From Nitrospinota bacterium (GTDB lineage: Bacteria; Nitrospinota; Nitrospinia; Nitrospinales; VA-1), in the NCBI GenBank assembly GCA_036339675.1, contig JAYZAN010000078.1:1-40559 (forward strand): a stretch of DNA of 40,559 nt. Reading direction: 5' to 3'. Both the position numbers and the translations under genes were made by a program. How positions within the stretch are numbered: the first letter of the stretch is position 1; each line of letters begins with the position of its first letter. Under the pieces are notes generated by a model. That model saw only the letters and a list, made by a program, of their open reading frames with translations, made no database searches and was not told the DNA's origin. Shown here in pieces: positions 4,786-40,412 of the stretch.

Positions 4786-6035
4786 TTTACTCTGCGAATT
4801 TTAGCTCCGAGTCCGGACAGCTTTTTTTCCATTTTCTCGTATCCCCGATCGATGTGATACACCCGCGAAATGACGGATTCCCCTTTTGCAGCCAGAGCCG
4901 CCAGTACCAGAGAAGCGCTCGCCCTAAGATCGGTGGCCATCAGGGGAGCTCCGCTTAACTGCTCCACCCCGCTGATGATGGCGCTGTGGCCGTCCACAGT
5001 GATGTCGGCCCCCATTCTTTTCAGTTCCGCCGCGTGCATGAACCGGTTCTCGAATACCGTTTCCATCATTATACTCTGCCCCTTGCCCAAGGTCATCAGC
5101 GCCATAAATTGCGCTTGCATATCGGTGGGAAATCCTGGAAAGGGCTGGGTTTTGATGTTGACGGCCCGAAGGTCTCCCGGACGGTTCACCCGGACCCGGT
5201 TTCCTGCCGTTTCGACCTGAATCCCTGCCTGCTGTAACTTATGGATCAGAGGTTCCACATGATTCGGGATACAGTTCTGGATTTCCACCTCTCCTCCCGT
5301 AATCGCTCCTGCGATCATATAGGTGGCGGTTTCGATCCGGTCGGGAAAAATCCGGCAATCAATGGGCTTCAGGGAGGTGACCCCTTGGATGGTCAGCATG
5401 TCGGTCCCCTGGCCCTCAATCTTGGCCCCGGCCCGGTTCAGGATGTCGGCCAGGAACACCACCTCGGGTTCTTTAGCAACATTTTCCAGGATGGTTTCAC
5501 CTTCCGCCAGAGTCGCCGCCATCATGACATTGGCCGTTCCGGTGACCGTGACGGTGTCGAAATAATAACGGGTCCCACGAAGTTTTTTAGCGGTTCCGAA
5601 AATGTATCCCTCTTCGAGCTGGATGTCCGCACCCAGGGCCTCCATGCCTTTTATGTGAAGGTCGATGGGCCGGGCACCGATGGCACAACCCCCTGGGAGC
5701 GATACCTTGGCTTTTCCCAACCGTGCCAAAAGAGGCCCCAGCACAAGACAGGACGCTCTCATGGTGGATACCAGATCATAAGGAGCTTCCGGGTTGTTGA
5801 CCATAGAACTGTCCAGTTCAATGCGGTCACCCTCGAAAGAGCCGATGTTCATTCCCAGTTCCTTGAGCAGGTTCGCCATTGTGGTGACATCACGAACCTG
5901 CGGAATACCGGAAATAATGTTTCCCCCGGAAGTCAGAATCGTGGCAGCCATGACAGGCAGCACGGCATTTTTCGCTCCGCTGATCTCCACCTTGCCCTGC
6001 AAGGGGGTATTACCTTCTATAATGATTTTGTCCAT
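4782..6035 (-). CDS. murA: UDP-N-acetylglucosamine 1-carboxyvinyltransferase
   Basis: SGAKNAVLP, LPGGCAIGARP, FPTDMQAQ, DLRASA, HIDRGYE. Confidence 0.98.
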   Translation of the reverse strand: MDKIIIEGNTPLQGKVEISGAKNAVLPVMAATILTSGGNIISGIPQVRDVTTMANLLKELGMNIGSFEGDRIELDSSMVNNPEAPYDLVSTMRASCLVLGPLLARLGKAKVSLPGGCAIGARPIDLHIKGMEALGADIQLEEGYIFGTAKKLRGTRYYFDTVTVTGTANVMMAATLAEGETILENVAKEPEVVFLADILNRAGAKIEGQGTDMLTIQGVTSLKPIDCRIFPDRIETATYMIAGAITGGEVEIQNCIPNHVEPLIHKLQQAGIQVETAGNRVRVNRPGDLRAVNIKTQPFPGFPTDMQAQFMALMTLGKGQSIMMETVFENRFMHAAELKRMGADITVDGHSAIISGVEQLSGAPLMATDLRASASLVLAALAAKGESVISRVYHIDRGYEKMEKKLSGLGAKIRRVK

Positions 6036-6140
6036 CTAATATTGATCCGCTAAAAAAATTTGTCCCGACCGTCATAAAAATGTGTGTGCGCTAAAATGAT
6101 CCCATTGTGGCCACTGCAGATTTTCAGCGGGCCAATTTAT

Positions 6141-6428
6141 GGAAACCTCTAATAAGTCTAAATTTTTGTGGAGAACCTCCGCTTGTAAAGGGTGACATTA
6201 TTAATTCGCGCTCAACGTTCATCGTCAACTCTAGAATCTATTAGCCAACTACCCCCGCGGTACGCCCACTATGTGGGAGGAAAAAGGATGAACCTTATTT
6301 TGCGCCCAACGATCATCGTAAGCTCAAAAGCTATTAGCCATCTGGCACCGCGCCGAGCGGACGGCCATGAACTTGCCCTTGAATTTAAAGGGCAAGTTCA
6401 TGGCCGATCACAATTTTTAGAGGTGCCC
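6141..6428. mobile_element. MITE-like element carrying two tandem repeat-family units and a long hairpin
   Basis: Imperfect terminal inverted repeats GGAAACCTCTAA / TTAGAGGTGCCC; TTAT direct repeat on both flanks (6137-6140, 6429-6432); units at 6206 and 6300; homologous to 40270-40412 and to dnaE insertions. Confidence 0.7.
6362..6406. repeat. Perfect 19-bp inverted repeat with 7-nt loop
   Basis: CGGCCATGAACTTGCCCTT (6362-6380) / AAGGGCAAGTTCATGGCCG (6388-6406). Confidence 0.95.
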
Positions 6429-6515
6429 TTATTTCTTCCCGCCAGCTTGGTGGAAATTTTTCTCTGAAATGACTCGGTCTCGGAAACAGTAATATATTTA
6501 TCCGCCATGAGATAT

Positions 6516-7394
6516 TTATCCATGTACCTGTAAAATTTTTTTCGCCGATATGATCCGGTCGCGGCCGCTGTAATCGGGAAACACCTCAACACCGGCAACC
6601 CCCCCATGAGCCCGGAAAATTTCAGAAACTCTTTGAGCCTGGTCTTCGCCGATCTCCATAAGAAGACTTCCCCCGTCTTTTAGAACTGTGAATGAACGGG
6701 GAATGATTCTTTTATAAAAATCAAGACCTCCCGGCCCGCCATCCAATGCCTGCCGGGGTTCATAAGCCCTCACATCGGTCATCAGGTGGTCCAGACGTCG
6801 GGTCTCTATGTAGGGAGGATTTGACAGAATAAAATCGTAAACTGGCCCGCAATCCTCATCCATTAAATCCGCGTGCACAAAACGAATGCGGTCCGACACC
6901 TGATGAGTTCGTGCATTTTCCCCGGCAATATCCAAGGCGTTTTTTGAGTTGTCCACAGCGGTTATCATCGCCCGGGACAATTCTTTAGCCACAGCGATGG
7001 CGATATTTCCGGTGCCGGTTCCAATATCCAGAATTTGAAACGGCCGATCCTTCTCCGATGCGGTTATCAGATCCAGAAACCGCTCAAGGAGAACCTCCGT
7101 TTCGGGCCTGGGCACCAGGACATCCGGGGTTACTTTAAAATCGAGGGACCAGAATTCCTTTTTCTTCAGGATATAAGAAACCGGCTCCCAGCGTGCCCGC
7201 CGTTCGACAAAATTTTTACAGATCTGATGTTCTTGTTCGGTCAATTCCCGGCGCGGAGCGATGAGTAAGTGTTCCCGGCTGGATTTCAGAACCTCCGCTA
7301 AAAGTACTTCGGAGTCCAGGCGGGGATTATCGACCCCGGCGCGGTCCAGACAGGACGAAGACCAATCGAGGAATCTCTGTGCCGTCCAGTTCAT
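6516..7394 (-). CDS. prmC: Release factor glutamine methyltransferase PrmC/HemK
   Basis: VLVPRPETE, LDIGTGTG, SNPPY, ALDGG..GLDFY; downstream of prfA; ORF extends to 7448 but ATG at 7394 fits family length. Confidence 0.95.
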   Translation of the reverse strand: MNWTAQRFLDWSSSCLDRAGVDNPRLDSEVLLAEVLKSSREHLLIAPRRELTEQEHQICKNFVERRARWEPVSYILKKKEFWSLDFKVTPDVLVPRPETEVLLERFLDLITASEKDRPFQILDIGTGTGNIAIAVAKELSRAMITAVDNSKNALDIAGENARTHQVSDRIRFVHADLMDEDCGPVYDFILSNPPYIETRRLDHLMTDVRAYEPRQALDGGPGGLDFYKRIIPRSFTVLKDGGSLLMEIGEDQAQRVSEIFRAHGGVAGVEVFPDYSGRDRIISAKKILQVHG

Positions 7395-7460
7395 CGTCCC
7401 ATCCCCTTTCACCCTTTGATTGAGAATTCCGTTCTGAGTGCGGTTCATTAATTTTAATGA

Positions 7461-8567
7461 TCATACCGAAAGTGTTCCGGCCTTTTCATTCTTTCCTTCG
7501 TCATCCCTTTGTTTGAGAGATTCCGTCTGAAAATGAATCGCTAGTTTTTCGACGATTTCATCCAGATCCCCCTCCATGACCTGGGAGAGTTTGTGAAGGG
7601 TCAACCCGATTCGATGATCGGTGATCCTCTCCTGCGGGAAATTATAGGTCCTGATCCGTTCGCTCCGGTCACCGGTTCCAACCTGCTGTTTCCGGTTACG
7701 GGCCAACTCGTCTTTTTGTTTTCTCTGCTGCTCATCGTACAACCTGGCACGAAGGACCTTCATGGCTTTATCCTTATTCTTGTGCTGGGATTTCTCGTCC
7801 TGACAGGTCACGACCAGCCCGGAAGGGACATGAGTGATTCTCACCGCCGAATCCGTGGTGTTGACGCTTTGTCCCCCAGGACCAGATGAACGAAATACAT
7901 CGATCTTTAATTCCGCGAGATTGATCTTGATATCTATATCTTCCGCTTCGGGCAGAATGGCCACGGTTACCGCCGAGGTGTGGATTCGCCCCTGGCTTTC
8001 GGTCTCAGGCACCCGCTGCACGCGGTGGGTACCGCTCTCAAACTTTAATTTACTGAATACTCCCTTCCCTTGAATACTCAAAATGACCTCTTTGAAACCA
8101 CCCTTTCCGGTCGGGTTCTGGCTCAAAATCTCCGTCTTCCATTTTTTGGTCTCTGCATAACGATTGTACATCCTGAACAAATCCGCAGAAAACAGGGAAG
8201 CCTCTTCTCCCCCTGTACCCGCGCGGATTTCCATGATGGCGTTTTTTTCATCCCGGGGATCCTTGGGAAGAAGCAGTACCTTCAACCGGTTTTCGGCCGC
8301 GGATTTTTCTTCCTCCAATCTTTGCAGGTCTTCCTGGGCCAGTTCGAGAAGTTCAGGGTCGTCTTCCTCACCCAGAAGTTTATTACTGTCCTCCAATTGC
8401 CGGTTGATCTTTTTCAATTGCCGGTATTCGGTCATGATTGGAGCGAGATCCGACTGCTCCTTGGCGTACTTCTGGTATTCGAATTGCCTAGAGATGATAT
8501 CCGGGTCACTGAGCAATTCGTTCAGGTCATTGTACCTTTTTTCAACTTCCTCAAGCCGGTCAAACAT
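7461..8567 (-). CDS. prfA: Peptide chain release factor 1
   Basis: GGQ motif ([10 protein letters not shown]), PET anticodon-like tripeptide, EIRAGTGG; start ATG 8567 (ORF to 8588). Confidence 0.97.
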
Positions 8568-8672
8568 GATTCTCTTTCCGAAACTCAAAAAATTGTGTGG
8601 CAGTTAACTTAAGGGATGTCGGGATTCGACGGAAATGGGTCTAGGGACAACGAGGGGGGTCGCGCCCGGAGG

Positions 8673-8773
8673 CCAGCGTGACGGTGGACCCAACAGGGTG
8701 AAGTTCTGATTGCGCTCAGTAATTATTGAGTATAAACCAGAGTTTCAGCCAGTTCCCCGCCCGCGTGGCGGGC
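8673..8773 (+). repeat. Diverged intergenic copy of the repeat family
   Basis: CCAGCGTGACGGTGGACCCAACA matches 11627-11649 at 20/23; then, at the same 16-nt spacing after CCCAA, TTGCGCTCAG-N28-GCCA (8710-8751). Confidence 0.6.
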
Positions 8774-8777
8774 CAGA

Positions 8778-9017
8778 CTATTCGGGGGCTGCAGTTTCCT
8801 GGGCGGCTTCTTTTTTCTGGGCTTTTCCGTATTTGCGGTTGAATTTTTCGATCCTGCCCGCGGTGTCGATCAACTTCTGTTTCCCAGTATAAAACGGATG
8901 GCATTGAGAACATATTTCCACATGCACATCCTTGACGGTGGCCCGGGTTTTGATCTCGTACCCACACGCGCATCGGAAGGTGGTTTCAAAATATTCAGGA
9001 TGGATCTCGACTTTCAT
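8778..9017 (-). CDS. rpmE: 50S ribosomal protein L31 (zinc-binding type)
   Basis: [24 protein letters not shown]. Confidence 0.97.
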
Positions 9018-9027
9018 ACCATCTTTC

Positions 9028-10278
9028 TTATGAGTTCATCGACGAGAGGAACTCAGAGTTAGTCTTGGTTTCCTTAATTTTTTGCAGGAGAAGGTCCATA
9101 GTATCATGAACCCCCATGGGTAATAAAACTTTTCTAAGAAGCCAGATGCGCTGCAAGTCTTCCGGCGGCAGAAGAAGCTCTTCTTTCCTGGTTCCCGACC
9201 GATGGATATCGATGGCGGGGAAGGTTCTCTTATCGGCCAGTTTCCGGTCGAGGACGATTTCCAGGTTACCGGTTCCCTTGAATTCCTCGAAAATCACGTC
9301 ATCCATCCTGCTACCCGTATCGATCAGGGCCGTGGCGATGATTGTCAGGCTGCCGCCTTCCTCCAGGTTCCGGGCAGCGCCGAAGAAACGTTTGGGACGC
9401 TGAAGGGCATTGGAATCAACACCTCCGGACAGCACTTTTCCGCTAGGCGGCACGATGGCGTTGTAGGCCCGGGCCAGCCTGGTGATACTGTCGAGAAGAA
9501 TCACCACATCCCGTTTGTGTTCGATCAGGCGCTTGGCCTTTTCGATGACCATTTCCGCCACCTGGACGTGACGCTGAGCCGGTTCGTCAAAGGTGGAACT
9601 GATAACCTCCCCTTTGACAGACCTCACCATATCCGTCACCTCTTCCGGCCTTTCGTCGATCAGGAGGACAATCAAAACGACTTCCGGGAAATTGGTGCTG
9701 ATGCTGTTGGCAATGGACTGCAACAACATGGTCTTCCCCGTCCGGGGCGGGGCCACGATTAATCCGCGCTGGCCTTTTCCTATCGGGGTCATCAAATCCA
9801 TGATACGAGCGCTGTAGTCATGCCCGTTCAGCGTTTCCAGCCTTATCCGCTCCTCGGGGTACAGCGGTGTCAGGTTGTCAAAAAGGATCTTGTCCTTGGT
9901 CTTGTCCGGATTCTCAAAGTTGATCGCTTCGACTTTCAACAGCGCGAAGTACCGCTCGCTCTCTTTTGGCGGCCGGATCTGTCCCGATATGGTGTCCCCG
10001 GTGCGCATGTCGAATTTCCGGATCTGCGACGGCGATACATAGATGTCATCCGGCCCCGGCAAATAGTTATAGGTCGGAGCACGGAGAAAACCGAACCCAT
10101 CCGGCAGAATTTCCAATACGCCCTGACCGAACATCAGGCCGTCCTTTTCCGTCCGCGCTTCTAATATCTTGAAGATCAGGTCCTGCTTGCGTAATCCGCT
10201 ATGACCTTGAATTTTAAGGTCCTTGGAAATATTTGTGAGTTCGGAGATAGTTTTAGATTTGAGTTCTTCAATATTCAT
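9028..10278 (-). CDS. rho: Transcription termination factor Rho
   Basis: [35 protein letters not shown]. Confidence 0.99.
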
Positions 10279-10504
10279 GGGATGCGACTTAGTTGAGGTG
10301 AGAGTTGAATTAGATTCCTGTTTTTGGCTAGTTTTTTGAATGGTGATTTGTCTGGTTTAAGGTTTGTGAAAAGGAATGAATGAGGGTAAGGTCCGGATTT
10401 CCAAAAAATTGTTTTCTGAATATATCGGCAAAGGTGCGTAGAAAGCTGAGCTGGATTGATTGGGTTATGGGGTTTTTTTAATAGGGGCGCTGGAGGTTTC
10501 TAAC

Positions 10505-10533
10505 AATGTATCCAGTTACATATTCTTTGTCAA
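10505..10533 (-). promoter_or_regulatory. Sigma70-type promoter for rho operon
   Basis: Minus strand TTGACA-N17-TACATT about 230 nt upstream of rho. Confidence 0.7.
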
Positions 10534-10566
10534 CAACTTTTTCCCTGATGTTATGGAAACTCCCGG

Positions 10567-10598
10567 GCCCCCACGGCGAGTGGCCGGGCGTGGCCCGG
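10567..10598 (+). repeat. Fragment (right arm plus small hairpin) of the repeat family
   Basis: GCCCCCACGGCGAG identical to 12327-12340, followed by TGGCCGGGCGTGGCCCGG, similar to 11722-11739. Confidence 0.7.
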
Positions 10599-10608
10599 AA
10601 ATTTTATC

Positions 10609-10638
10609 TTGACCCGGCGCTCCATCCCGATTTAAGAT
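10609..10638 (+). promoter_or_regulatory. Candidate sigma70-type promoter for dnaE2-like gene
   Basis: TTGACC-N18-TAAGAT about 70 nt before the ATG. Confidence 0.45.
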
Positions 10639-10707
10639 ACTTGATACCCAAACCATCGAAAACAAGGCATTTTTTTTGTCCCTTATTTTCGTTTTTTATT
10701 CGCTTTT

Positions 10708-13700
10708 ATGTTTGTACACCTAAACTGCCACAGCAACTATTCGCTCCTCGCGGGCACGAACCGGGTCGACGACCTGGTCCGGGCGGCCGCGGCCCAGGGA
10801 TGCCCGGCACTGGCTCTGACAGATACCAACGGTCTCTATGGGGCCATACCGTTCTATCAGGCGGCTCTCAAGGCCCATATACGCCCGATCCTGGGAACGG
10901 AGATAATAACAAACCGGCGTGCGACACTTCTGGCAAAGAATCTGCGGGGATTCGGGGAAATCTGCCGCATCATCACCCGCCGCCATCTGCAGCCCGGTTT
11001 CTCCCTAGAAAAATGCCTGGAGCAATGCAGCCATGACGTCATCATTCTGTGCCCGGATGAAAACCTCCTGGAAAACACGATCGCTGTCCGGGGAGGCGAA
11101 GACATCTACGCGGAACTGCTCGCCGCAGGGGCGGATGGCAAAAACCCAGACTGGCGACCTCAAGCGATTGGGCGCGAGACGGGGTCCGGCCTGTTCCCCC
11201 CGGGCGTAGGCCACCACACGGGGAGAAAAGTCGTTCCAGAAAATCCCGGTTTCGCCCAACGATCATCGTTTGGAGAACAAAGCATTAGCCAATTCCCTCC
11301 GAGCGTGACCCGGCGGCGAGCAGTGGCTACCAACCGGGTGTTTTTCATTCGTCCGGAGGACTGGCAGATCCACCGTCTCCTTACGGCAATACGCACCGGC
11401 ACGACCGTAGACGCATCGTCTGCACTGCATGAATCGAAAGAGTTATGGATGAAGCCGCCTGAGGAAATGGTCCGCCTGTTCCATGACATCCCGGAAGCCA
11501 TCCGGAACACTCTCGACATCGCCGAACAGTGCAATGTCGTCCTGCCCATCGGCGAGATACGGCTCCCGAACTTTCCGCTGCATGCGAGCGGGATACCTTC
11601 CTCCCGGCTGGTCGCCGCAGGGGCGCCCAGCGTGACGCTGGGCCCAATAAGTTCAACCTTATCTCGCGCTCAACGGTCAACGCAAGATCAAAAGTTGTTG
11701 GCCATTTGGCCCCGCGCCGAGCGGCCAGGCGTGGCCCGGCTTCGCAGACTTGCCCGGGAGGGAGCCGTAAAACTTTATGGTCACCCGCCGCCTTCCGATG
11801 TATCCGAGAGACTGCGTTACGAGCTTGAGGTCATCGACAACCTTGATTTTGCCTCCTATTTTCTGATCGTCTGGGACATCGTGCGTGAGGCGAAAGCCCG
11901 GGGCATCCCCACGGTGGGGCGCGGTTCCGCCGCCAACAGCCTGGTGTGTCGGGTCTTGGGAATCACCGAGGTGGACCCGATCGAACACAACCTGTATTTC
12001 GAGCGGTTCCTCAACCCGGAACGAACGGATTACCCCGATATCGACATCGATTTTCCCTGGAACCGGAGAGACGAAATGCTGGAATACGTGTTCAACAAAT
12101 ACGGACATGAGAACGTGGCGCTGATCTCCACCCATGTCCACTTCCGGGGCCGCTCGGCGCTCCGGGAGGTGGGCAAAGCCCTAGGGGTTCCCCTCCCAGA
12201 GATCGACGCCTTCGTCAAGAGGCTACCGCATTCTTTCGACGTGGCCGGGCCACGCCCAGGGGGAACAGGCCAGACCCCGTCTCGCACCCAATCGCTTGAG
12301 GTCGCCAGTCTGGGTTTTTGCCAACCGCCCCCACGGCGAGCCCACTACGTGGGAGAAAACGGGGGAAAATGGATTTCGCGCTCAACTGTCAATGCAAGTT
12401 CAAAAGCTGTTAGCCATTTGGCCCCGCGAGCGGCCGGACTGGAAGAGGTGAGGAAACTGGTGCCGGAATGCCGGGACCTGCCGCTGGAAGACGAACCTTA
12501 CCGGTCGATCATCGCGCTGAGCAAAAGGATCGACGGATTCCCCAGGCATCTGTCGATTCACTGCGGGGGCATCGTGATCAGTCCGTTTCCCATCACCGAC
12601 CGGATACCGCTTCAGAAAACACCCAAGGGATTCGTAGTGACGCAGTACGACATGTACCCCGTCGAGGACATGGGACTGCTGAAGATCGATCTTCTCGCGC
12701 AGAAAGGGCTAGCCGTGCTCGCGGACACGGTGCAAAACGTCAAAACCCTTTATGGAACAAAAATCGATTTCAGCCAGATCGATCCCACGCGCGATTCCAG
12801 GACCCGCCGGTTGATCCGGCAGGGAAAAACCATCGGTTGTTTCTACATCGAGTCTCCGGGCATGAGAAACCTTCTGCAGAAACTGGAGGTCGACAGTTTC
12901 GACATGCTGACGGCGGCCAGTTCCATCATACGTCCGGGCGTGGCGGACAGCGGCATGATGAAGGCGTTCATCGACCGCCACAACGGCAGGGAGAAAGTCC
13001 ACTATCTGCACCCGAAAATGGAAGAGATCCTGAAAGAAACTTTCGGCGTGATGATCTACCAGGAAGACGTGATCAAGGTCGCCCACGCGATCGCTGGAAT
13101 GAGCCTGGGAGAAGCGGACAGCCTCAGAAAATGCATGAGCAAAAAGAGAGACTGGGAGGACATCAACAACCACCGGGAACGTTTTTTTTCGGGAGCACGC
13201 GCGAACGGTATCGCGAAAAAAATCATCGAAGAAATCTGGAGGCAGATCGAAAGCTTTGCGGGATACGCGTTCTGCAAAGCCCACAGCGCTTCTTTCGCGC
13301 TGGTCTCCTACCAATGCGCCTACCTGAAGGCGCACTACCCCACCGAGTTCATGGCGGCGGTCCTGTCCAACCGGGGCGGGTTCTACGACGCCTGCGCCTA
13401 CACCGAGGAAGCGCGGCGTATGGGAATCAAGATACTAGCTCCACACGTCAATCACAGTGCCGAAGAATTCATGGCATGCGGAAAACGCGCCATGTATGTC
13501 GGGCTCGGACAAGTAAAAGGGCTGTCGCACCACACCATAAGCACTATTCTGAAACACCGCAAGGACGGTCCTTATGTATCGGTGGCGGATTTCCTGTCGC
13601 GTGTGGAGGCAAGCATTCCGGAAACCGAGGCCCTGATCCGCTGCGGCGCACTCGACGGGGCGAGAACTTCACGCCCGGAACTGTTGTGGCAGCTGAAGCT

Positions 13701-14217
13701 TTTAACTCGTGCGGAAAAAAACGGGCCCATGGCAAGTCTCCCGTTTACTTCTGTCCGGAGGACCAGGATTCTTAAACTCCCCGAGTACACCCTACGCGAA
13801 AAAGTGCTGGCGGAGCTGGAGCACCTGGATCTCGCGGTCTCAGCCCACCTGTTGTTGCTCTACGATGTGAACCAAGCGGGGTTGACACAGGCGCGGGACT
13901 TGGTCCAGTTTCCCGGATGCATCGTAACGCTGGCCGGATGGCTGGTGACCGCCAAAAGCACCTGGACCGTGCAGCACCAGTTGATGAAGTTTCTGATGCT
14001 GGAAGACGCCACGGCATCTTTCGAGGTCACATTGTTCCCGAAGGTTTACAGGCGGTTCGGGCCGCTCCTCTATGACCGCGGACCTTACATCGTCAAGGGC
14101 CGGGTGGAGTCGGAAGGCCGGTGCCATACCATCACGGCGCTCTGGCTGGGCCGCTGCTCACCCACTCGCCGTGGAGGCGGTTGGCAAAAACTCTGGATCG
14201 CGAACTCTAGTGATTGA
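10708..14217 (+). CDS. dnaE2: DNA polymerase III alpha subunit family, DnaE2-like (error-prone type), with repeat-derived in-frame insertions
   Basis: PHP-like N-terminus (HLNCHSNYS), GRGSAANSLV, FERFL, PDIDIDF, RHLSIHCGG, KIDLL, YAFCKAH, OB fold (FLMLED); ends just after the OB fold with no long tau-binding CTD. Confidence 0.85.
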   Translation: MFVHLNCHSNYSLLAGTNRVDDLVRAAAAQGCPALALTDTNGLYGAIPFYQAALKAHIRPILGTEIITNRRATLLAKNLRGFGEICRIITRRHLQPGFSLEKCLEQCSHDVIILCPDENLLENTIAVRGGEDIYAELLAAGADGKNPDWRPQAIGRETGSGLFPPGVGHHTGRKVVPENPGFAQRSSFGEQSISQFPPSVTRRRAVATNRVFFIRPEDWQIHRLLTAIRTGTTVDASSALHESKELWMKPPEEMVRLFHDIPEAIRNTLDIAEQCNVVLPIGEIRLPNFPLHASGIPSSRLVAAGAPSVTLGPISSTLSRAQRSTQDQKLLAIWPRAERPGVARLRRLAREGAVKLYGHPPPSDVSERLRYELEVIDNLDFASYFLIVWDIVREAKARGIPTVGRGSAANSLVCRVLGITEVDPIEHNLYFERFLNPERTDYPDIDIDFPWNRRDEMLEYVFNKYGHENVALISTHVHFRGRSALREVGKALGVPLPEIDAFVKRLPHSFDVAGPRPGGTGQTPSRTQSLEVASLGFCQPPPRRAHYVGENGGKWISRSTVNASSKAVSHLAPRAAGLEEVRKLVPECRDLPLEDEPYRSIIALSKRIDGFPRHLSIHCGGIVISPFPITDRIPLQKTPKGFVVTQYDMYPVEDMGLLKIDLLAQKGLAVLADTVQNVKTLYGTKIDFSQIDPTRDSRTRRLIRQGKTIGCFYIESPGMRNLLQKLEVDSFDMLTAASSIIRPGVADSGMMKAFIDRHNGREKVHYLHPKMEEILKETFGVMIYQEDVIKVAHAIAGMSLGEADSLRKCMSKKRDWEDINNHRERFFSGARANGIAKKIIEEIWRQIESFAGYAFCKAHSASFALVSYQCAYLKAHYPTEFMAAVLSNRGGFYDACAYTEEARRMGIKILAPHVNHSAEEFMACGKRAMYVGLGQVKGLSHHTISTILKHRKDGPYVSVADFLSRVEASIPETEALIRCGALDGARTSRPELLWQLKLLTRAEKNGPMASLPFTSVRRTRILKLPEYTLREKVLAELEHLDLAVSAHLLLLYDVNQAGLTQARDLVQFPGCIVTLAGWLVTAKSTWTVQHQLMKFLMLEDATASFEVTLFPKVYRRFGPLLYDRGPYIVKGRVESEGRCHTITALWLGRCSPTRRGGGWQKLWIANSSD
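11119..11320. repeat. dnaE insertion 1: two back-to-back repeat units (minus 11119-11177, plus 11250-11308)
   Basis: 11119-11207 is the reverse complement of 12252-12340 at 83/89; CGCCCAACGATCATCGT identical to 6303-6319; boundaries approximate. Confidence 0.85.
11581..11740 (+). repeat. dnaE insertion 2: hairpin plus one repeat unit
   Basis: 11655-11724 matches 6291-6360 at 58/70 ungapped; GCCCAGCGT-G-ACGCTGGGC palindrome; boundaries approximate. Confidence 0.85.
12241..12438 (+). repeat. dnaE insertion 3: two tandem repeat units (12282, 12376)
   Basis: 12320-12428 matches 6244-6352 at 81/109 ungapped; same 94-bp period as the 6206/6300 pair. Confidence 0.9.
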
Positions 14218-14259
14218 GCGCGAGACGGCGTCTGGTCTGTTTCCTCCGGGCGTGGCCCG
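14165..14259 (-). repeat. Repeat copy overlapping the dnaE stop codon
   Basis: 79/95 ungapped identity to the reverse complement of 12246-12340; same orientation as 11119-11207. Confidence 0.9.
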
Positions 14260-14370
14260 ACTGGACTTCTGAGCCAGACATTAATACTTTTTTATTTATA
14301 AAACACCGGTGTACACTGGGATGAATCTCTCTTAACACAGCACATCCATTGGCATCCGGGAACACTTCAA

Positions 14371-15351
14371 ATGAGTGAGCAAAAAGATTTCACCATCGAG
14401 TCCAAAGATTTTGAGCCAGCCTATATGAAGCTGTTCAGGACCGGGGAGCTGTACCGCCGGTCAAGGGAGGTGTTGCGCCTGTTGGAGAACTGCAAGGTAT
14501 GCCCCCGCGACTGCGAGGTGGACCGGCTGGCGGATGAAACGGCGGTCTGCAAAACTGGACGGCACGCGATCGTGTCGAGCGCCTTCCCGCATTTCGGCGA
14601 GGAAGACTGCTTACGGGGCTGGAACGGGAGCGGAACCATTTTCTTCTCCATGTGCAACCTGAAGTGCGTTTTCTGCCAGAACTACGACATCAGCCAGGAT
14701 GGCGAAGGCCAGGAAGCAGGGCCGGAACACTTGGCGTTCATGATGATGAATCTTCAGAACCGGGGGTGCCACAACATCAATTTCGTGACTCCCGAGCACG
14801 TCGTGCCGCAAATCCTGGAAGCCCTGCCGCTGGCCGTGCAACTGGGGCTGAGGCTGCCCCTGGTTTACAATACCGGAGCCTATGATTCCATGGACAGTAT
14901 GCGGGTGATGGACGGAATCGTAGATATCTATATGCCCGACTTCAAATACTGGAGTCCGGAACTTTCAAAAAAATACCTGAAGGCGAAGGATTACCCGGAA
15001 GCCGCACAACGGGTCATCCGGGAAATGCACCGGCAGGTGGGCGATCTGGTTGTGGATGAAAACGGTCTGGCCAAACGTGGGGTTCTGATCCGCCATTTGG
15101 TCATGCCGGACAGCGATTCGGATGCCAGGCAGATCATGCATTTTTTAAATCATGAAGTTTCTCCTCATACGTACGTCAACATCATGTCTCAATATCGCCC
15201 TGCGGGAAAGGTGAACGCGAACAAATACCCCGAACTCAACCGGAAAATCTTTTCAGAGGAAGTCGGCCGGGTTTATAAAATCGCCAGAGAGGAGGGACTG
15301 TACCGGTTCGATAAAAGGCGTCCCGTATCCGGCGCATTTGCAATTGTCTGA
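14371..15351 (+). CDS. PflX-like radical SAM protein
   Basis: C..CPR.C, HFGEE.CL.G..GSGTIFF, CNLKCVFC (CxxxCxxC), NINFVTP, DIYMPDFKY, RHLVMP. Confidence 0.9.
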   Translation: MSEQKDFTIESKDFEPAYMKLFRTGELYRRSREVLRLLENCKVCPRDCEVDRLADETAVCKTGRHAIVSSAFPHFGEEDCLRGWNGSGTIFFSMCNLKCVFCQNYDISQDGEGQEAGPEHLAFMMMNLQNRGCHNINFVTPEHVVPQILEALPLAVQLGLRLPLVYNTGAYDSMDSMRVMDGIVDIYMPDFKYWSPELSKKYLKAKDYPEAAQRVIREMHRQVGDLVVDENGLAKRGVLIRHLVMPDSDSDARQIMHFLNHEVSPHTYVNIMSQYRPAGKVNANKYPELNRKIFSEEVGRVYKIAREEGLYRFDKRRPVSGAFAIV

Positions 15352-40269: not shown

Positions 40270-40412
40270 AAATGGCAAGTTCATGCCGCTCGCCACGGAG
40301 GCAGATGGCTAATAGCTTTTAAGCTTACGATGACCGTTGGGCGCAAATCATAGACGGTGAATATTTCTTGCGGAGGTACTCCGCCTATGAGCAATTTTTA
40401 GAGATTCCCTTA
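40270..40412 (-). mobile_element. Partial MITE-like element with one repeat unit
   Basis: 40302-40347 reverse complement matches 6299-6344 at 44/46; end 40392-40415 matches 6411-6434 at 22/24; GCGGAG-GTA-CTCCGC hairpin at the same 23-nt distance from the core as in the 6.1 kb element. Confidence 0.8.

Follow-up and report, generated by a model that had tools for sequence, protein, structure and literature searches.

In a Nitrospinota bacterium, the gene for a second, shorter DNA polymerase of the DnaE family carries in-frame copies of a hairpin-bearing repeat at three internal sites and another at its 3′ end, and in the rest of the genome this repeat lies mostly between genes. The gene (10708–14217, plus strand) is located in a window of 40,559 nucleotides (nt), which comprises positions 1 to 40,559 of contig JAYZAN010000078.1 in GenBank assembly GCA_036339675.1, here called contig C78 of assembly G000 (1.8 Mb, 161 contigs, 78% complete). 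In the labels used below, G stands for a genome, C for a contig, L for an ortholog locus, P for a protein cluster and X for a sequencing run, and P0001 is the window's protein. Colonisation of this gene by an intergenic repeat family with preservation of the reading frame had been proposed in a sequence-only reading of the window, and comparison with other genomes bears it out: the three internal blocks, A, B and C, are missing from all 21 aligned orthologs (11 of related genomes, two of them incomplete, and 10 further ones). [quoted passage not shown]

The open reading frame (ORF) runs over 1169 codons, and its translation confirms that it is uninterrupted and that the catalytic aspartate motifs PDIDIDF and KIDLL are intact, as had been noted before; both motifs are invariant among the orthologs. 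With its inserts the protein has 1169 amino acids (aa), and the orthologs have about 1000–1070 aa. Blocks A, B and C correspond to residues 138–204, 299–342 and 513–575, respectively, and unit D forms the tail after about residue 1149. Proline, glycine, arginine and serine together make up 45% of the inserts and 24% of the remaining protein. Block A (about 11116–11324, 67 aa) consists of two units and displaces roughly 22 native PHP-domain residues. Its first unit, A1 (11116–11212, plus strand), is matched by nhmmer and by a covariance model (CM), and the second, A2 (11213–11324, minus strand), belongs to a subtype with an extra hairpin and was delimited by an nhmmer match (11250–11301) and by ortholog alignments. 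Block B (11603–11734, minus strand; 132 nt, or 44 codons), to which the slightly wide limits 11581–11740 had been given, has a CM match at 11614–11733 and is composed of an inverted 5′ module, which is a fragment of a plus-strand unit, and, after it, one minus-strand unit. It is flanked by a 7-nt direct repeat, CCCGGCT, with the first copy at 11603–11609 and the second at 11735–11741. Block C (12244–12432; 189 nt, 63 aa), whose limits, like those of A, are close to the earlier ones, contains two minus-strand units in tandem, C1 (12244–12342; 33 codons, 99 nt), matched by nhmmer and CM, and C2 (12343–12432; 30 codons, 90 nt), and the 6-nt sequence GGCCGG occurs at both of its ends. Unit D (14158–14262, plus strand), found by a repeat finder, nhmmer and CM, gives the gene its final 20 codons and the TGA stop at 14215–14217; the source of the C-terminal codons and the stop had been correctly recognised, with about 17 codons counted instead of 20.

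The relationship of these units to one another and to non-coding copies is clear from direct alignment. Three ungapped alignments on which the proposal had been based were reproduced exactly: 58/70 (11655–11724 with 6291–6360), 81/109 (12320–12428 with 6244–6352) and 79/95 (14165–14259 with the reverse complement of 12246–12340). The repeat finder pairs 11118–11212 with 12247–12341 (A1 and C1; 95 nt, 92% complementary) and 12246–12340 with 14165–14259 (C1 and D; 83%). Inverted copies of the 5′ hairpin module terminate both block A and block B. The two plus-strand units A1 and D differ in the frame in which the gene reads them, as do the minus-strand units B and C2; thus, even units of the same orientation encode no common peptide. 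When the sequence is aligned with Thermus Pol III alpha, site C comes to lie between residues 531 and 534 of that enzyme and site B where the Thermus protein is itself longer. As a separate observation, the inverted repeat formed by A1 and C1 brackets 1034 nt including the catalytic PDIDIDF, a segment that recombination between A1 and C1 would invert.

An iterated nhmmer search of G000, seeded with 11118–11212 and run to convergence, gave 181 matches, representing 147 distinct copies of the family on 67 of the 161 contigs. The copies form 115 clusters, of which 87 are single, 25 double and 3 larger. The unit of about 105 nt begins with a stem-loop (4-bp stem, 5-nt loop), continues with a conserved core and ends with a second stem-loop that exists in several compensating variants; the 5′ and 3′ hairpins differ in sequence, so that single units have unlike ends. 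Over 25 copies, pairing in the two helices reaches 80.8%, compared with 34–45% in slid controls, helix 1 alone being 91% paired, and the covariation score of the stems, 0.347, compares with 0.056–0.119 for slid controls and was reached by none of 500 shuffles. The two-hairpin structure is a reading from these pair counts, which support it. RNAalifold returned no pairs on the 25-copy alignment and only the 3′ hairpin on a 60-copy alignment, single units have no folding advantage over shuffled sequence (z −1.67 to +0.34), and an Rfam scan of 5900–14500 yielded no family match, only two matches at chance level.

By crude gene calls, 102 of the 147 copies are intergenic, 26 lie over the 3′ end of a gene, 11 over a 5′ end and 8 inside ORFs. 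Unit D is therefore ordinary for the family, as overlap with a gene's 3′ end is found for 26 copies. The repeats are enriched in convergent spacers (35/111 versus 186/1141, P = 2e-4) and are mostly co-oriented with the upstream gene (56 same, 26 opposite; P = 0.001). With the covariance model the family was detected in 17 of 31 genomes of the order. The CM counts per genome, for which about 116–150 candidates were scored in each, are lower bounds: at least 115 copies in G000, at least 67 in G010, at least 45–49 in G018, at least 23 in G030, at least 21 in G024 and at least 18 in G027.

Only the five internal units of the polymerase paralog, among the 147 copies, lie in a long open frame. These five account for most of the eight copies placed inside crude ORFs, and the other three are in doubtful ORFs of 100–200 aa. 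A relaxed search (E up to 10) placed 2 of 66 weak matches inside other genes, with E values of 2.9 and 9.2 that are at chance level, and in the complete genome of a relative, G018, none of the 30 best copies is in a gene. One G018 copy in an open frame (L146) was considered as genic and rejected, the place being the groEL–glgC spacer. The absence of copies from other coding sequences, noted before for the window, thus extends genome-wide as far as internal copies are concerned: none of the 147 lies inside another credible gene. Moreover, some of the units in the gene resemble one another. A1 and C1 are 94% identical over 77 aligned positions and D has C1 as its nearest relative (82%), so that three of the six units, A1, C1 and D, are one another's nearest relatives; for the non-genic copies, the nearest relative lies within 5 kb in only 8 of 138 cases. 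Judged from the sequences, this likeness points to spread or conversion inside the gene.

Independent alleles of the gene are available from other data sets. Eighteen DNA runs from 12 studies (marine/seawater metagenomes) contain 0.38–0.53 of the sampled words of 10900–12600, and contigs were mapped from three DNA runs (X1, X2 and X7) of three studies. The left junction of A, which is that of A1, is spanned by contigs 10825–11186 and 10782–11132 (X2, X7), and the right junction, that of A2, by contigs from 11169 and 11231 onward (X1, X2). An X1 contig crosses the left junction of C1 and enters C up to 12290, and another contig, 12327–12477, spans C2 together with the right junction. C2 is present in contigs of X1, X2 and X7, with 3 nt (CGC) added after 12426, inside the unit, in X1 and X7. 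At site B, all contigs of the three runs that span the site join 11602 to 11735, so that exactly 132 nt are absent and the 7 nt CCCGGCT fit either side; the 7-nt direct repeat is thus demonstrated by an empty site. P0002, a protein from another assembly, has 1095 aa, of which 1070 residues are identical to the window protein (98% identity). It contains A, with unit A1, as well as C1 and the D tail, and is without B (44 aa) and C2 (30 aa). With B removed, the protein aligns to the orthologs free of gaps. The contigs of the three runs do not resolve unit D, for which the same tail is found in P0002. Units A, C1, C2 and D are therefore real and not assembly artefacts, and B and C2 are presence/absence polymorphisms among close strains. 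Runs X2 and X7 also show a second joint, from 11664 to 12328, which links two units over flanks of just 28–36 nt and was taken as a repeat-induced match. One RNA run, X19, gave two 151-nt contigs, 11741–11891 and 12107 back to 11957, which touch no insert and are uninformative on inserts in the mRNA; the presence of a contig in an RNA library is no proof of transcription.

The reading frame has been respected throughout. The separately defined length changes are all multiples of three: 132 nt for B, 99 nt for C1, 90 nt for C2 and 3 nt for the small indel. In addition, three to five of the six frames are open in the genic units, compared with a mean of 1.19 of 6 in the 118 other copies, 35 of which have none, and the GC content is 57% in the genic units versus 47% in the others. 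Since neither frame nor freedom from stops would matter otherwise, we infer that the inserts are translated, and the same two facts disfavour the earlier suggestion that they are removed or used at the DNA or RNA level. Among the 39 coding differences listed from the population, the native core has 21 synonymous and 11 non-synonymous ones, a ratio of non-synonymous to synonymous polymorphism (pN/pS) of 0.17 (binomial P = 7e-7 versus neutrality), and the inserts have 1 synonymous and 6 non-synonymous ones (Fisher P = 0.03 versus the core). Against orthologs, pN is 0.18–0.23 and pS is 0.59–0.82, like the values of insert-free orthologs among themselves; because pS is saturated, the corresponding ratio of substitution rates (dN/dS), about 0.1–0.2, is only a bound. 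Private changes at invariant columns number 4 of 289 in the window protein (1–15 in the orthologs), and a relative-rate test against L032 (70 versus 56, chi-square 1.6) is not significant. The native parts of the protein are thus under purifying selection, and the inserts evolve relaxed. The gene is not decaying, as the core pN/pS of 0.17 and a dN/dS not near 1 both indicate. Of the outcomes that the sequence-only reading had named as contrary to itself, which also included segments shared with orthologs and assembly artefacts, none was found, with a reservation for B, which is seen in the source assembly only.

Has the same gene been entered elsewhere? The orthologs L014, L015 and L017 harbour 3–4 copies each of a roughly 100-nt repeat of their own, at sites that are partly different, and two of the L017 copies are 94% alike. 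The core and the 3′ hairpin of this repeat are the same as those of the window family. Weak matches to the hidden Markov model (HMM) coincide exactly with the inserts of L014, L015, L017, L024 and L028, and parts of the L024 and L028 inserts are matched at other places in the respective genomes. Lineage-restricted insertions of at least 12 aa are present in 7 of 23 distinct paralog orthologs versus none of 29 DnaE1 genes of relatives; besides that of G000, the insert-bearing orthologs come from the wider collection, and the nine orthologs of the 30 relatives have none. Likewise, rare internal insertions of at least 15 aa are found in 26 of 111 protein clusters of the paralog versus 0 of 111 of DnaE1 (P = 6e-9), where the single DnaE1 match is an artefact of upstream start codon choice and the paralog set is the more diverged one (mean identity 0.56 versus 0.73). 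The insertions of the paralog are at recurrent places, about residues 95, 126–146, 689, 768, 925, 988 and 1013. The same insert peptides occur at different sites (about 689, 925 and 1013 in P0001 numbering) in the Nitrospinaceae orthologs P0015, P0019, P0016, P0039, P0030, P0033, P0038 and P0044, and P0019 has one insert motif twice in tandem. On the evidence of these peptide sequences, the inserts of the eight orthologs are to be regarded as further mobile in-frame repeats in the gene family.

What kind of polymerase does the gene encode? Pfam recognises four families in P0001, namely PHP, with a match confined to residues 4–116, DNA_pol3_alpha, finger and HHH_6. The superfamily model TIGR00594 gives 741 bits, above its cut-off of 434, which places the protein in the DnaE/PolC group (C-family). 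It falls short of the error-prone DnaE2 model NF004225 (633 bits, insert-free orthologs 671–674, cut-off 939) and also of the replicative DnaE model NF004226 (793 bits, insert-free orthologs 834–838, cut-off 1002). The replicative DnaE1 is a separate 1167-aa gene on contig C49, which scores 1527 bits with the latter model. Genes for error-prone DnaE2/ImuC typically lie in or near an imuA-imuB-dnaE2 cassette. Neither imuA nor imuB adjoins the polymerase paralog, which is flanked by rho on the opposite strand and by a radical SAM gene identified by Pfam, and the sole gene with an IMS domain (Y-family) in the assembly is on another contig, C109. The ORFs upstream of the orthologs have no Pfam match. 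An ortholog is present in at least 14 of the 30 related genomes, and the closest ones sit in metagenome-assembled genomes of Nitrospina and Nitrospinaceae. On the basis of model scores and gene neighbourhood, the gene is classified as a second, shorter paralog of the DnaE family, and the label DnaE2, with the mutagenic role that had been attached to it, is supported neither by the NCBIfam cut-offs nor by the neighbourhood. Its base composition is unusual: without the inserts the GC content is 57.6%, compared with a mean of 50.5 (standard deviation 3.1) for the genes of the genome, and is exceeded in only 6 of 711 genes. The density of CCCGG/CCGGG is 8.2 per kb versus 4.5 per kb in other coding sequence (1.8-fold). 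For reference, the GC content is 54% in the radical SAM gene and 50.5% in the replicative dnaE.

Several further features of the surroundings may be recorded. Within the window, all family copies outside the polymerase gene are intergenic: two tandem units at 6156–6369 (minus strand; nhmmer and CM), one unit between the RF1 and rho genes at 8660–8780 (nhmmer and CM, with the model matching both strands) and one at 40277–40396 (plus strand; repeat finder, nhmmer and CM). A perfect palindrome some 40 nt long (6364–6404) comes after the tandem units; its Rfam match to a microRNA family is at chance level, and similar palindromes precede copies on C89 and C125. The Y-family gene of G000 (C109:6350–8393) has family copies at both ends, one of them over its 3′ end by 28 nt. 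Directly 5′ of the ATG of the polymerase paralog, alignment of 14 orthologous upstream regions reveals a promoter-like region and a T-rich leader (10600–10707, plus strand). A TTGAC-type promoter is common to all 14, and the nearly invariant leader, which abuts the ATG and is without a Shine-Dalgarno sequence, contains two TTCGC words 7 nt apart; it may be a regulator site or translational operator. The radical SAM gene (14371–15351, plus strand; Pfam) is a conserved 3′ neighbour: radical SAM ORFs also adjoin the orthologs in L017 and L018 and lie about 0.9 kb off in L021. Radical SAM enzymes of the SplB type are tied to SOS repair neighbourhoods in PMC3765255, but neither NCBIfam models nor PDB sequences match this gene to spore photoproduct lyase or to any other named enzyme. 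Some orthologs are seemingly broken or masked. In L012 (G028) there is a stretch of X and the N-terminal part is garbled, and the ortholog matches in G023:C59 and G025:C1 have one TAA apiece.

An outline of the process that we favour is as follows. Non-autonomous, hairpin-bearing repeats that mainly lie behind genes have inserted into a non-essential second DnaE-family gene, where selection would have kept only the copies that have a length divisible by three and are stop-free in the frame of the gene. The inserts would then be translated as extra, unconstrained segments rich in proline, glycine, arginine and serine, tolerated in putative permissive loops, and the remaining protein is held under purifying selection. 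Gain or loss of units continues among close strains, as with B and C2, and part of the load seems to have arisen by spread inside the gene, as with A1, C1 and D. Movement could be by transposition with a short duplication or by microhomology-guided template switching or recombination, both of which fit, and tolerance together with local spread would account for the concentration in one gene. Several points weigh against this explanation. Translation of the inserts is something that we infer from the DNA. The permissive surface loops are putative, insert A cost native PHP-domain residues, and tolerance alone leaves the absence from other dispensable genes unaccounted for. No Y1 (PF01797/RAYT), TnpB-type or rve transposase was found in the 78%-complete genome, where the only transposase remnants are broken DDE_Tnp_1 fragments at contig ends, none adjoining a repeat. 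Target-site duplications are in no excess at 52 single intergenic copies (19% with at least 6 nt, versus 15% with permuted flanks). B is found only in the source assembly, the site being empty in all three DNA runs and in P0002, and the P0001 cluster has one member on one contig. The population comparison covers 40 listed differences of 74, with the 39 in the coding region classed. Finally, G037 has at least 112 family copies, yet its ortholog L032, the closest found in the genome_contigs set, is insert-free over 768 assembled residues.

The concentration in one gene might instead reflect insertion bias, the gene or the state of its DNA or transcript being the preferred landing site, because it is unusually GC-rich and abounds in CCCGG-like sequences similar to the hairpin stems of the element or because it is often single-stranded when induced. 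Such targeting, under either cause, we regard as possible but unlikely. It would fit the fact that the three internal insertion sites of the genome are all in one 3.5-kb gene with the composition described above, the resemblance of the direct repeats at B and of GGCCGG at C to the stems, and the independent insertions in orthologs of other lineages, where the site-A region is again included. However, the 1.8-fold motif excess is far too small to account for exclusivity, the sites differ between lineages with no common target motif recognised, and rare insertions are lacking both from the ortholog of copy-rich G037 and from all nine paralog orthologs among the 30 relatives. Exaptation, in which the segments or their mRNA hairpins tune the amount or properties of the polymerase and gain or loss between strains is adaptive, seems improbable to us. 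A, C1 and D are common to all alleles seen, the genic units score 64–91 bits with the CM, within the family range of about 40–107, and insertion recurs in the same gene across lineages; but frames and orientations vary without a common peptide, the sites and sequences of the inserts differ between lineages, the insert differences run at 1 synonymous to 6 non-synonymous, B and C2 are dispensable in nature, and the folding of single units is no better than that of shuffles.

Another explanation has the inserts taken out ahead of translation or in the course of it, through RNA processing or ribosomal bypass, so that the protein would resemble its orthologs. The in-frame context of B would then be suggestive: the same CC CGG CT flanks it, a hop between the identical CGG codons would yield exactly the protein of the empty allele, and hairpins are present. 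Removal would, however, free the inserts from the need to be stop-free and multiples of three, with which all of them comply; there is no stop after the putative take-off codon, Pfam reports no intein or intron-related domain in P0001 and Rfam no RNA family, and we hold this explanation to be very improbable. A decaying pseudogene that remains open by chance is hardly tenable, either. It would agree with the many insertions, the loss of about 22 residues at site A and the short Pfam PHP match, but 1169 codons are open across seven units or fragments, the core pN/pS of 0.17 was obtained in a population already carrying A, C1 and D, there is neither rate acceleration nor an excess of change at invariant columns, and the catalytic motifs are intact. 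The fragmentation and incompleteness of the metagenome-assembled genome and the absence of B from every other data set examined might suggest assembly artefacts, to which we attach next to no probability: contigs of other studies run through the two junctions of A and the two of C, P0002 has A, C1 and D, and B itself is in frame, with a 7-nt duplication that is too short to mislead an assembler and typical of a real insertion. A bolder idea, which we regard as a long shot, makes the second DnaE-family gene of Nitrospinales a landing pad, specific and heritable, for the superfamily of hairpin repeats, into which some link between the element's way of inserting and this gene would steer units repeatedly. 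The strain-variable in-frame segments would then tune the polymerase in the manner of a contingency locus. Candidates for the link may be template switching by the polymerase itself and DNA that is single-stranded or damaged where a locus is induced by damage, and inversion between the 95-nt pair A1 and C1, which brackets the catalytic palm, would possibly be part of the tuner.

The case makes it possible to ask by what means mobile DNA is taken up into proteins as new loops, and whether the places of repeat survival are set by insertion bias or by selection. It also carries a warning for annotation: blocks of low complexity in these polymerases represent mobile DNA and not family features. 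A limited full-text search of the literature found no description of this repeat family or of repeat-laden dnaE genes, and comparison has to be made with other systems. The closest are the Rickettsia palindromic elements (RPEs), to which the sequence-only reading had likened the family. According to PMC10969869, RPEs are short repeats bearing a palindrome, present between genes as well as in frame within protein-coding genes, which they do not destroy, just as here; R. conorii is reported to have 44 insertions, close to half of which are located in ORFs of unrelated genes, and each family has one conserved peptide. The analogy therefore holds for how the element works and fails for membership: RPEs are spread over many unrelated genes and keep a peptide, whereas here the five credible copies inside genes all share one gene and use several frames and both orientations. 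The bacterium here is a free-living marine relative of nitrite oxidisers, and the comparison is one of descriptions. QMITE2 of Coxiella burnetii, as described in part in PMC5896051, is 150–190 bp long, is found mainly in the 3′ regions of genes and has direct repeats of 7–11 nt, which recall the 7 nt at B; it sometimes supplies C-terminal residues and a stop, as D does, or lies in frame within an ORF. It differs, again by description, in that the same text places it in frame in a few hypothetical proteins only and reports no concentration in a single gene.

REP sequences and the bacterial interspersed mosaic elements (BIMEs) built on them are 20–40-nt extragenic palindromes with RAYT transposases (described in part in PMC3733652). 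The family shares with them its extragenic hairpin repeats with covarying stems, clustered in both orientations and behind genes with an orientation bias; it differs in its unit of about 105 nt with a long core and two small hairpins, and in the lack of Y1 (RAYT) genes in the genome as assembled. Intragenic enterobacterial repetitive intergenic consensus (ERIC) sequences and other small mobile sequences of enterobacteria form occasional in-frame fusions (Delihas, 2007, cited in PMC10969869), which in that secondary account are sporadic single cases with no recurrent host gene reported. With MITEs the comparison is mixed: blocks A and B end in inverted 5′ modules, single units have unlike ends, and no related transposase was found in the 78% of the genome that is covered. 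Translational bypass elements, such as that of T4 gene 60 and the mitochondrial byps, are hairpin inserts that are flanked by matching codons, stay untranslated and are free of frame. Hairpin-containing inserts between matching codons are a feature in common, but frame and the absence of stops are kept here, arguing for translation. Inteins differ in that no intein/Hint domain is found by Pfam in P0001 and the inserts are copies of a non-coding repeat. In-frame repeat insertion is thus a known phenomenon, classically in Rickettsia, with the insertions dispersed among many genes and their state usually regarded as frozen. The present case adds that all internal copies of a 147-copy family are in one gene, that alleles having a given unit and alleles lacking it occur side by side in nature and so provide exact empty sites, and that the same gene has been struck independently by related repeats in several lineages and the replicative paralog never.

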